Source of the DNA: a virus
Lineage: Duplodnaviria > Heunggongvirae > Uroviricota > Caudoviricetes
Direction: 5' to 3' (one strand)
IMG/VR virus record: IMGVR_UViG_648028025_000008
DNA length: 33,448 nt
The stretch's first letter is position 1. Every line of letters starts with the position of its first letter. Made by a program: the position numbers. Shown in pieces: positions 18,001 through 24,000 of the stretch.

Positions 18001-21000
18001 CGTTCCTGATGTCGTACTTCACTCAGACCACTGACGGCAGAGTGAATCTGATGCATCACAGGAAAGCCGGAAACACGAAGCTGGGGGAGTTCGGCGATTA
18101 CGGTAACGACTGGCAGACGCTGGAGCTGGTGTTCACCGCCGGCAGTGCCACGGTTACTCCGAAACTGAATGGAGTGGCTGGCCCGGCATTCCAGGTTATA
18201 AAAGACAGTCTGACACTGGGACTGAATGCGCTGACGCTGACGGATGTTACAAAAAATGCAGCGTATGGCGTTGAGATAGAAAGTCTGGTGCTGGAGATAA
18301 ATGCACCGGCATCATCATAAAAAGTGAGCCAGTCAAATGGAAGGTATCGTTAAACTCACCGGTAGTGTCAGTGGGTCGTCTGAGACGCCTGCATGAGTTA
18401 TCAGAGCCATCAGTAGTTAACTGGTGGCTTTTTTATTGTTGTCAGCTTCCGGATAACGGGAGACGGGGTATGTACCAGATGGAAAAAATCACAACAGGTG
18501 TGTCATACACCACGTCAGCGGTAGGGACGGGATACTGGTTACTGCAACTGCTGGACAAAGTCTCTCCGTCCCAGTGGGTGGCAATAGGTGTACTGGGGAG
18601 TCTGCTGTTTGGCCTGCTGACGTATCTGACTAACCTGTATTTCAAAATCAGGGAGGACCGCCGTAAGACGGCGCGGGGAGACTAAAGCGATGAAGAAAAA
18701 ATACGAACTGGTTGTTAAAGAGATAAATAATTACCCGGATAAGATTGCTGTTACTGTGGCACTTGAAATTGGCGGGCATCCGTCGTTGTTGTTGCCACAT
18801 GTGGCGATTAGTCTTGACCGTACTGAAGGTGCCACGCTGGAGTTTTACGAAGCTGAGGCGAAAAAGCAGGCGAAGCAGTTTTTCATGGATGTTGCTGCCG
18901 GGTTATGTGAAGGGGATGGTCCGTTACCGGAAAAGCGTCCCGTAATTTTAGAGGCGCAGGATGTGTTGATAACCTACAGAGGAAAACTACCGGGAATAAT
19001 TACGGGTTCTCTGAAGACTCCACCGCTGGCCTGAAGACTTAACATATCCAGGGATTTGAAATCGATAAACCCTGATAAATATCCATGAACGCAAAAATCA
19101 GATACGGCCTGTCGGCTGCCGTTCTGGCGCTGATTGCCGCAGGTGCGCCTGCGCCTGAAATCCTCGACCAGTTTCTGGATGAAAAGGAAGGTAACCACAC
19201 CACAGCATACCGTGATGGTGCGGGTATCTGGACCATCTGCCGTGGAGCCACCCGGGTGGATGGTAAGCCTGTTATTCCTGGCATGAAGCTGTCGAAGGAA
19301 AAATGCGACCGGGTTAACGCCATTGAGCGTGATAAGGCGCTGGCATGGGTGGAGAAAAACATCAGAGTGCCACTGACCGAACCCCAGAAAGCGGGGATTG
19401 CGTCATTCTGTCCGTACAACATTGGCCCCGGTAAGTGTTTCCCGTCGACGTTTTACAGACGGATTAATGCAGGAGATCGAAAAGGTGCCTGCGAAGCTAT
19501 TCGCTGGTGGATTAAGGACGGTGGCAGGGACTGCCGTATTCGCTCAAATAACTGTTACGGTCAGGTATCCCGTCGTGACCAGGAGAGCGCGCTGGCGTGC
19601 TGGGGAATCGACAGATAAGCAGAATATTTTGCTGAAAAATGAGGTTTGCTTACATGGATGGATAACACGAAATCCTGCAAATTGGCAAAATGTAAGTGAA
19701 TAAAGTCAAAACAGTTGTTTAACACTCAGGCACCGTAATGATGCCTTTGTCATTTCTGCGCATCTCACGCGCATCTCACAACACAGAACCTTTCAGGATG
19801 ACCCTTGAGGATACCGGTTTGGCTGTCGGTGCCTTTCTGTGGGCTGGATTCCTGTGAGACAAGGTTCATCACTAAAAGGAAATAACCGATGAATATGATG
19901 GCCGTGCCGTTTCACGGCAACTCTCTTTATGTAGTTAACCATAATGGCGAACCATACGTTCCCATGAAACCTGTCGTTGCGGGGATGGGGCTGGCCTGGC
20001 AATCACAGTTGGCTAAGTTAAGACAGCGTTTTGCGTCAACTATAACGGAAATCGTTATGGTTGCTGAGGATGGGAAACAACGCAATATGGTGTCCATGCC
20101 ACTTCGAAAACTTGCCGGCTGGCTACAAACCATTAATCCCAACAAAGTAAAACCCGAAATCCGCGATAAGGTCATCCGGTATCAGGAAGAGTGCGACGAT
20201 GTTCTTTACGAGTACTGGACGAAGGGTTTTGTCGTTAATCCCCGTAAAATGAGCGTGATGGAAGAACTCAACCAGGCTTGTGCTGACATGAAACGGGATA
20301 AAAACATTGCCAGTGTGTTTGCTACCGGGCTGAATGAGTGGAAACAGGTTAAAGCCGCGCATGTATCAAAAATCCGTACGCTGGTAAATGAAGCGAATAT
20401 GAGGTAGCCTGAGTTTAACGGACACTCCTTCCTGAAATAGAATGGCATCAGAAGGAGCTAATAATGAGCAGAAAAACCCAACGTTACTCTAAAGAGTTCA
20501 AAGCCGAAGCTGTCAGAACGGTTCTTGAAAATCAACTTTCGATCAGTGAAGGCGCTTCCCGATTATCTCTTCCTGAAGGCACTTTAGGACAATGGGTTAC
20601 CGCCGCCAGAAAAGGGCTCGGTACTCCTGGTTCCCGCACGGTGGCTGAACTGGAATCTGAAATTCTGCAACTGCGTAAGGCGTTAAATGAAGCTCGCCTT
20701 GAGCGAGATATATTAAAAAAAGCAACAGCGTATTTTGCACAGGAGTCGCTGAAAAATACGCGTTAATCGAACAATGGCGACAACAATTTCCCATTGAAGC
20801 GATGTGTCAGGTATTTGGTGTATCCAGGAGCGGTTATTACAACTGGGTACAGCATGAACCCTCAGACAGAAAACAAAGTGATGAGCGGCTAAAACTGGAG
20901 ATTAAGGTGGCACATATCCGCACTCGCGAAACATATGGAACCCGGCGGCTCCAGACGGAGCTGGCAGAGAATGGCATCATCGTTGGTCGTGACCGACTGG

Positions 21001-24000
21001 CACGTCTTCGTAAGGAGCTAAGGCTACGCTGTAAGCAGAAACGCAAGTTCAGAGCGACTACGAACTCGAACCACAATCTGCCAGTTGCGCCAAATCTGCT
21101 GAACCAGACGTTCGCTCCTACAGCACCAAATCAGGTCTGGGTGGCGGACCTGACGTATGTTGCCACACAGGAGGGATGGTTGTACCTCGCTGGCATCAAA
21201 GATGTTTATACGTGCGAAATTGTCGGCTACGCCATGGGAGAGCGCATGACAAAAGAGCTGACAGGTAAAGCTCTGTTTATGGCGCTCAGGAGCCAGCGCC
21301 CACCTGCCGGGCTAATCCACCACTCTGATCGAGGTTCACAGTACTGCGCATACGATTACCGGGTCATACAGGAGCAGTTTGGTCTGAAAACATCAATGTC
21401 GCGTAAAGGTAACTGTTACGACAACGCTCCGATGGAAAGCTTCTGGGGAACGCTGAAAAATGAGAGCCTGAGCCACTATCGTTTTAATAACCGGGATGAA
21501 GCCATCTCAGTAATACGGGAATACATTGAGATTTTCTACAATCGTCAGCGTCGTCACTCTCGTCTGGGGAATATCTCCCCGGCAGCCTTCAGGGAAAAAT
21601 ATCATCAGATGGCTGCTTAAAAAAAGAACAAATGGTAGTGTCCGCTATTGCCAGTACACCTCAATTTTTGTAGAGCCGGAGGAAACAGACCAGACGGTTT
21701 AAATGAGCCGGTTACGAATGACATGAACATATTAAAAAAAATTATGCAGCGTCTGTGCGGTTGCGGAAAGCATGATGACCGTGAAGACGGGGAGTTACTT
21801 ACAGCACAGCTGCGACTGGGACCGGCAGACATTCTGGAGTCAGATGAGAATGGCATTATCCCGGAGCAGGACAGGGTAATCACGCAGGTGGTGATACTGG
21901 ATGCGGATAAAAAGCAGATACAGTGTGTGGTAAGACCGCTGCAAATCCTGCGTGCTGACGGGACGTGGGAAAATATTGGCGGGATGAAGTAACCCGACAG
22001 CTTCACAAAACCGGAGTCCGGCTCCGGTTTTTGTTGTCATGTAAGGCAGATGTTTGTTAAAGCTATTTAAGTCTGGAGTTTAAATTAAAATAGGGAGTTT
22101 TATAATGCCGTTAAATTCGGAGATTAGATCAAGCTCATGTTTAATGGATTGAATGTCCTTCGAGCTCAAGTAGCATCTAGCGGTCGAGGGGAGTTTACAT
22201 TAGGTAATGAGACTGTCAGCATTGTATTTAATGAAACCGATGGGCGTTTTCTATCCAGCGGCAGTAGTGGGGGATTGCTTACTGAGTTATTCCTTTATGG
22301 GTTTAATAACGGCCCTGAAGCTCTTCGCGATAGGATGCTCAGTATGCTTTCGGACTCAGGTGAAGCACAATCGCAAGAGAGTATTCAGGACAAAATATCT
22401 CAATGTAAGTTTCCTGTTAGTTCAGGAAATTTCCAGTGCCCGCCAGAGTCTATTCAGTGTCCAATTACACTAGAGAGACCCGAAGAAGGAGTGTTTGTCA
22501 AAAATTCAGATAGTTCGGCAGTATGCTGCTTATTTGATTTTGATGCATTTTCTCGTTTAGCTAGTGAAGGCTCATATCATCCACTGACCCGAGAACCAAT
22601 AACGGCATCAATGATTATAAGTCCTGATAAATGTGTTTATGATCCTATCAAGGGAAACTTCATTATAAAAGATAGTTAAAATATTTTTCTCTGAGAGAGT
22701 ATTGGCTGTCAGTAATTTGTAAAAAAACGCCGCAGACATCCAGAATATAAGAAGGTGTCTGTGGTTGGCAGGTTTCAGATGACTTGAAGGCGTCTTTATG
22801 TAAATGCATTTTTCTGTGGAGATGTTGTCGGAAAATATTGGATTAAAAACATAATCCAAGTCAAATAGTAAGTTTGTTTTTTTTGAGATTAGGTGTGTAT
22901 TTAGAATTTTTATGATGTGTTTATTTTGTGGGGTATTTTAGAAAAAAATATATTAATCCTTATTAATAATAGCTGCCATCCATTTCAGCTATTATTTTAA
23001 AATAAACAAGTTAAAGCTTAGACTCTTGTTTCTTGGATTATATCAAAGATATCAACATGATTTGATGGATTATGATGTGGTAAGCCATTGCTTTCGATAT
23101 CGATTACCACATCCTCTGGATTTGGATGCCGCTGTCCAACAGGGATACCTTCTTCCATTGCGCGTATATCAGCACCTGTGGCATGTTCAATATCTGCTTT
23201 ATTGGGGAAAATAGCTCCTTCTCTTGCGTGCCACCATATACGAGGATAGTCAGTGAATCTAGCTACTTCAAACTCGGCCTTGTTTAAATCGGCAGCCCCC
23301 AGTGTCGCACCAGCCCACCATAAAATAGTGTCTGGCTTTAATCCAGGGGTATTATACTGTATGGCATGCCCTGCTGCTTGCCCAACCATTGCACCGATAT
23401 GAGGACTTAACATTGGATCTGTACTAGCAAATCTGGATACTGCAAATCCCCCTAAAGCACCAAGCGCATTTGCGGCAGCATTGGTAAGAACGGCATATTT
23501 AGTATTAGGGTTATCTAAATCCCACTTGAAATGTGCGCCAAACTCCAGCCCTAGAGTTGCCTGTAATGGAGATGCACCATATTTAAAATCTGCTTCTCCC
23601 GGTCTGATAACCCACTCCTCCGTGTAATTTGCTTTCGGCCCATCAGGAGTAAGTGGTGTTTCTCCAACAAGCTTCCATCCATTTTCAGTTTTGACTATAG
23701 GAAGTTCTACACCATGATTACGAACCACTTGAGCTGTTAATCCAAACCATGGTATTGGGCCTTTTGGCTCGGTGGTTACCGTCGAAGTAGTGGCTGATGT
23801 TCCAGTCGATGCAATAGTCGACACTGCAGTGGTTGATATATTACTGTTGCTTAATGCATTTTTTAACGGGCCAGGAAGGTCTTTAAAATTAAAACCTATT
23901 TCATCATGCAGAGGGAATATCTGTAAAAAATAATTACCTGATGTAGGATGAATATCTGGTTTTACAATGTTTAGCTGGACACCATATTTACCAGAGATGC

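Follow-up and report, generated by a model that had tools for sequence, protein, structure and literature searches.

The DNA analysed here, a stretch of 33,448 nucleotides from the IMG/VR virus record IMGVR_UViG_648028025_000008 (Caudoviricetes) and referred to below as the window, carries a complete copy of the insertion sequence (IS) IS600 at the 3' end of ant, a phage antirepressor gene. A preliminary description of this DNA had placed an IS600-like element at 20400-21663, and direct reading finds these coordinates correct to the base: the element opens with TGAGGTAGCC (TGAGGT...) and closes with ...CACCTCA, and its terminal inverted repeats are imperfect, with 19 of 27 bases agreeing between both ends. 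As had also been proposed, the ant reading frame runs into the left inverted repeat and ends there on a TAG (20405-20407). Its last codons are GAA GCG AAT ATG AGG TAG, in which the last two bases (T and G) of ATG and all of AGG come from IS600. The gene, which is located between the lysozyme gene R and Rz, is indeed truncated at its 3' end, with the loss confined to the final 17-18 of 188-189 codons; the lengths are those of an intact allele of 188 amino acids in strain 97-3250 (L002) and of a 189-amino-acid allele implied by a reconstructed empty site (see below). To this part of the preliminary description should be added that both Pfam domains, P22_AR_N and ORF11CD3, are kept. The P22_AR_N match (PF10547, residues 5-113, E 1e-45) suggests that Ant is an antirepressor of the P22 type, with putative activity. 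On the right, IS600 is followed by ATT (21664-21666), and no 3-bp direct repeat flanks the element, in agreement with the earlier observation that ATA on one side faces ATT on the other.

The window copy has in common with IS600 a length of 1264 bp, the TG...CA ends, orfA and orfB, the rve domain, the A7G site with its -1 frameshift (a programmed frameshift in the transposase according to the RefSeq annotation), and the 3-bp duplications present at sister copies. Over its 1264 bp it does not differ (100% identity) from many copies on chromosomes and plasmids that RefSeq annotates as 'IS3-like element IS600 family transposase', and matches to it are found on 140 Shigella plasmids. Judged from its sequence, the element is IS600 itself and not merely 'IS600-like'. 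IS600 belongs to the IS3 family, was first described from Shigella sonnei, and is amplified in non-O157 Escherichia coli that produce Shiga toxin (STEC). The element is no different from other copies; the window copy is set apart by its lack of matching flanks. The 3-bp target-site duplication of the IS3 family is seen at the same insertion in strain EH031 (ATA/ATA) and at another IS600 copy (GTC/GTC), whereas the window has ATA on the left and ATT on the right. Since this mismatch is due to an adjacent deletion, it was not counted against membership of the IS3 family. The copy with GTC/GTC lies in strain 97-3250 (L002, 8123-9386), which has the same prophage with ant intact; there IS600 sits 1.5 kb further downstream, between a small hypothetical gene and ylcI, and is an independent hit in the same late-region segment.

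Table 1. Features around the IS600 copy and the deletion junction (window coordinates).
Feature	Position	Strand	Details
ant, antirepressor gene, 3'-truncated	19889..20407	+	171 native codons, then Arg and TAG from IS600
Left flank ATA	20397..20399	.	Original copy of the 3-bp target-site duplication of the ant insertion
IS600 (IS3 family), complete	20400..21663	+	1264 bp; TG...CA ends; direct reading
orfA	20464..20766	+	HTH_Tnp_1, E 1.5e-20 (Pfam)
A7G slippery site, -1 frameshift	20715-20722		Within IS600
orfB	20802..21620	+	rve catalytic domain, E 3e-26 (Pfam)
Deletion junction	21663..21665	.	Last IS600 base (21663) joined to ISCro1 interior
Terminal ISCro1 stub, 52 bp	21664..21715	-	tnpA-side end; tip ...GGTTAC at 21715, GTAACC on the other strand
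GAATGACA	21716..21723	.	Remaining copy of the ISCro1 8-bp target duplication; flanks ISCro1 twice in EH031
Tail-fibre C-terminal domain gene	21723..21992	+	Phage_fiber_C, E 5e-36; RefSeq annotation; sole morphogenesis gene left

The arrangement that preceded the deletion is preserved in strain EH031 (NZ_AP027162.1), which has the same prophage at ompW and an identical left junction between ant and IS600. In EH031 the right end of the element is followed by ATA-TGCTGATTGATT..., which is the rest of ant, and the insertion has a clean ATA/ATA duplication. The empty site, rebuilt by removing IS600 and one ATA and hence carrying a single ATA, matches uninterrupted ant in hundreds of genomes, among them another prophage of strain RM10386, with 100% identity across 300 nt. 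From the flanks in EH031 and the rebuilt site it follows that IS600 entered ant by simple insertion and made its usual duplication of 3 bp.

Downstream of ant, EH031 carries Rz, HNH, terminase, capsid, portal and tail genes, the host specificity gene J interrupted by ISEc22, lom and a tail-fibre N-terminal gene. These are followed by a complete ISCro1, the tail-fibre C-terminal gene and the same effector locus as in the window. ISCro1, an intact IS66-family element of 2699 bp with tnpA, tnpB and a transposase gene, lies between the two tail-fibre genes and is flanked on both sides by the 8-bp duplication GAATGACA; the homologous tail-fibre region of the O157 strain TR01 is uninterrupted and has GAATGACA once. 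An extra CTG that follows the duplication in EH031, when compared to 97-3250, was considered as a sign of imprecise insertion. This was rejected: the CTG is an allelic codon, and the empty site that includes it is 100% identical in hundreds of genomes. ISEc22, which is also of the IS66 family, splits J at positions 20320-26255 of the EH031 locus (L008), and the undeleted prophage was thus already defective before the 29-kb deletion described next.

When the window was compared by blastn with the EH031 locus, positions 19587-21665 matched L008 1-2079 with 100% identity, and the 11.8 kb downstream (21664-33448) matched L008 31037-42820 with 99.96% identity. Relative to EH031, 28,959 bp are absent from the window, starting exactly at the right end of IS600. 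The suggestion that the downstream phage genes were lost through an adjacent deletion or an IS-mediated rearrangement is therefore borne out by a genome that still has them. The deleted DNA comprises the tail of ant, Rz, the terminase, capsid, portal and tail genes, J with ISEc22, lom, the tail-fibre N-terminal gene and most of ISCro1 (2,647 bp). Placement of the junction is ambiguous by 2 bases, AT (21664-21665), which suit both the old ATA and the new ATT flank. The 52-bp stub that is left of ISCro1 matches hundreds of unrelated chromosomes and plasmids wherever ISCro1 occurs, and it can be assigned to this IS66-family element by its GTAA tip, the 8-bp duplication and, in the full copy of EH031, the genes tnpA-tnpB-transposase. 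Among 5426 complete genomes, the left junction (ant::IS600) was found in 24 and the right junction (IS600 to ISCro1 stub) in 22.

Twenty-one complete E. coli genomes, those of the O26 strains RM10386 and RM8426 among them, match the 2.3 kb around IS600 with 100% identity. In RM10386 the corresponding region is a lambdoid prophage within ompW, the left part of which contains, in order, int, xis, exo, the early region, paa, Q and two tRNAs. These are followed by a SASA esterase gene, the holin gene, ydfR, the lysozyme gene, ant, IS600, the tail-fibre C-terminal gene and the effector locus; Rz, terminase, head and tail genes are absent from the RM10386 prophage gene order. The effector locus, which is exchangeable and begins after the tail-fibre C-terminal gene, consists of a frameshifted nleG-like gene, nleA, an integrase pseudogene, nleH1-2, nleF, nleG and espM1. 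In the preliminary description IS600 had been taken as the boundary between the phage backbone and this locus. IS600 and the locus are not in direct contact, the ISCro1 stub and the tail-fibre C-terminal gene lying between them. The effector genes nleH1-2, nleF, nleG and espM1 are intact, and nleA is annotated as frameshifted. The prophage retains int and xis, the early region, Q, holin, lysozyme and the effector locus, and is predicted from its gene content to be no longer able to make particles.

Several further observations concern neighbouring genes. nleA lies on the minus strand at 23018-24342 as two open reading frames (ORFs; 23018..24064 and 24022..24342); it is annotated as frameshifted in RM10386, E2865 and EH031, and is intact in O157 TR01. 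The segment 25001-26060 holds an integrase pseudogene and, after it and just upstream of nleH1-2, a piece (72 nt) of a second tail-fibre C-terminal gene; it looks like the remnant of a prophage integrated into the prophage (compare the ompW prophages in PMC8112680). The adhesin gene paa (AcfC family, 10758-11516) is part of the early/replication region and adjoins a frameshifted fimbrial gene.

Three groups of relatives document what has since happened at this same IS600 copy. In strain 6883 (L016, NZ_CP074998.1) the left junction is kept and the right end of IS600 adjoins window position 25234. The intervening 3,570 bp (window 21664-25233) have been lost in addition, and with them the tail-fibre C-terminal gene, nleA and the nleG-like pseudogene. 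As this second deletion is again flush with the right end of IS600, deletion from that end is recurrent.

In 13 genomes the 29-kb deletion is present and IS600 is absent, and three different scars with short microhomologies at the joins are found in its place (loci inspected: L005, L009 and L010-L012, from E2865, SJ2D, PV0838, GPT21-004 and 7_12_30A). In E2865 and 2014C-3057, GAAGCGA is joined to TTTTTGTAG (GAAGCGA/TTTTTG), with loss of the IS plus 4 bases. In SJ2D and 13081, GAAGCGAAT is joined to TTTTGTAG (GAAGCGAAT/TTTTG), and the IS plus 3 bases have been lost, equal to the IS and one flank triplet. Nine genomes read GAAGCGAATA-TG-TAGAG, having lost the IS plus 5 bases with a TG microhomology. 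In these IS-less genomes ant reads through into the ISCro1 stub and acquires new C-termini. They descend from the window type and did not give rise to it, because each retains less flanking sequence. For E2865, the opposite order (deletion first, IS600 later) was considered and rejected: IS-less variants keep less of ant or of ISCro1 than the window does, and a 3-bp-duplicating insertion into any of them cannot yield the window sequence.

In strain 10153 (L003/L013, NZ_AP027191.1, 1894522-1945750) the left and right junctions are 51 kb apart, on two direct copies of IS600. Between them lies a complete prophage of another type, of about 50 kb, that is circularly permuted (tfa, pin, int ... terminase ... 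J, lom, stf), and the inner flanks of both IS600 copies are ATT. Apparently, an excised prophage circle carried an IS600 between stf and tfa, flanked by ATT/ATT, and this copy recombined with the one in ant.

IS excision promoted by the IS-excision enhancer (IEE) was reportedly described in 2011, by Kusumoto et al., for IS629 in O157. The iee gene is located in the Sakai genome (ECs1305), and in the three strains checked, namely 7_26_9A with the window-type junction and the IS-less SJ2D and UTAK-23, it is full length and 100% identical to that of Sakai. RefSeq names the IEE protein 'TOTE conflict system archaeo-eukaryotic primase domain-containing protein', and about 900 further E. coli genomes have partial, weaker matches to the first 250-350 nt of the gene. 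In STEC, IEE stimulates excision of IS3-family elements, including IS600, and also generates IS-flanking deletions (PMC9397093; bioRxiv 10.1101/2023.06.07.543989). Excision of IS600 by IEE has been shown in O121:H19, and SpLE1-like elements carry iee in O26:H11 (PMC9397093). IEE has a microhomology-mediated end-joining activity (PMC9943667), and flanking deletions have been explained as 'sloppy' strand transfer of one IS end (bioRxiv 10.1101/2023.06.07.543989).

The best explanation of the window, to which we give a probability of about 0.6, is an insertion followed by a one-step IS-adjacent deletion, driven by the transposase and possibly assisted by IEE. IS600 first entered the 3' end of ant, duplicating ATA and replacing the last 17-18 codons by an Arg codon and a stop from its left inverted repeat. 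The 28,959 bp to its right were then lost while the IS and its left flank stayed, leaving the right IS end at an ATT site inside ISCro1. This loss would most likely result from a one-ended, intramolecular reaction of the IS600 transposase, in which the right end is transferred not to its partner end but to a far-off site within the same molecule; IEE may help to resolve the product. A target chosen by the transposase, and not random breakage, is suggested by the fixed IS end, by the recurrence in strain 6883 and by the AT-rich triplet found at the new joint. The three scars with their microhomologies fit the pattern reported for IEE-assisted excision; for the 29-kb deletion that preceded them, IEE is a possible participant.

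Two other readings fare poorly. Had IS600 simply been inserted and one copy of its duplication later mutated from ATA to ATT, with no loss of DNA, two shared bases would be accounted for and nothing more; this reading is refuted by the right flank, which consists of ISCro1 and tail-fibre DNA located 29 kb away in EH031 and not of ant, and it retains practically no probability. An IS-independent, illegitimate deletion through microhomology, ending at the IS600 terminus by chance, could draw on the 2-base AT overlap at the junction. Its endpoint would then have fallen within 0-2 bp of the IS end, and the independent deletion in 6883 would have come to lie flush with the same end, a double coincidence that makes this account very improbable.

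A two-step route deserves more weight, although we regard it as distinctly less probable than the one-step deletion. A second IS600 in the same orientation would have been inserted in ISCro1, 52 bp from its tip and with an ATT duplication, and RecA-dependent recombination between the two copies would have deleted 29 kb and one IS. This predicts the observed sequence exactly, including the hybrid element flanked by ATA and ATT, and ATT is a genuine IS600 target elsewhere: in 10153, the IS600 between stf and tfa had ATT on both former flanks. Several points of this kind tell against the one-step deletion. The final sequence is equally given by recombination of ant::IS600 with a second copy of the same orientation that sat at an ATT inside ISCro1; as all IS600 copies are identical, this history would leave no recognisable chimeric IS. 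Recombination between IS600 copies happens within this lineage, as strain 10153 demonstrates at this very copy. The pre-deletion state is represented by one genome (EH031), and intermediates are thinly sampled. The one-step model also needs an extra, hypothetical resolution step, as copy-out-paste-in transposition alone is not expected to resolve into a deleted donor (bioRxiv 10.1101/2023.06.07.543989).

What separates the two routes is the intermediate that recombination requires. A two-copy state would read GGACATTATT/IS600/ATTTTTG, and its left junction, ATGATGGACATTATT then TGAGGTAGCCTGAG, was sought with a chimeric query made of 150 nt of ISCro1 interior ending in ...GGACATTATT and the first 150 nt of IS600. 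The 5426 genomes gave no unbroken match. The sole match with 100% coverage (7_26_9A) was rejected, as it consists of two pieces 589 bp apart at another ISCro1. In addition, the nested deletion of 6883 would demand another insertion in the same orientation and another recombination. Taken together, this nested deletion and the missing two-copy intermediate favour the one-step route.

The locus resembles the IEE systems of enterohaemorrhagic E. coli in several respects: STEC strains positive for iee, an IS3-family element, a flanking deletion flush with one IS end, and a subsequent disappearance of the IS that left several near-precise scars, with short microhomologies where the ends were joined. 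It differs in that the evidence at the window locus is a comparison of natural isolates only, and in that the deletion is large (29 kb) when set against the small polymorphisms usually catalogued. There is a similar likeness to PPompW (PMC8112680), a lambda-like prophage at ompW with nleA, nleH, nleF, nleG and espM at its right end that is defective by IS-mediated deletions. In O145:H28, however, it is the lysis cassette that was lost, whereas the window keeps S and R and has lost the whole morphogenesis module.

Neither the element nor the genes nor the type of event is new, and the features are already annotated in RefSeq. Defective ompW prophages with exchangeable effector loci, degraded by IS-mediated deletions, are well described (PMC8112680), and IS-mediated deletions are known in the late regions of O26 prophages (PMC10042803). 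This is a well-known route of prophage decay in Shiga-toxin E. coli, in which the virulence-effector genes stay. What is added here is a base-level history of this junction, together with its variant series. The loss of every packaging and particle gene, with the effectors kept, explains a prophage that is locked in the chromosome. The junction variants are practical lineage markers for O26 strains, and they illustrate the activity of IS600 and IEE without introducing a new principle.

More tentatively, and at somewhat less than even odds, the locus might preserve, in natural isolates, the whole range of events that an IS3-family element can bring about when its host carries iee: simple insertion, a one-ended deletion of 29 kb, a nested deletion of 3.6 kb that starts at the same end, three independent excision scars and the capture of a 50-kb prophage. 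If so, it would be a natural test bed for donor deletions by copy-out-paste-in elements, a step unexplained by the current model, and IS600 with IEE, not IS629 alone, would shape the effector-carrying prophages of O26.

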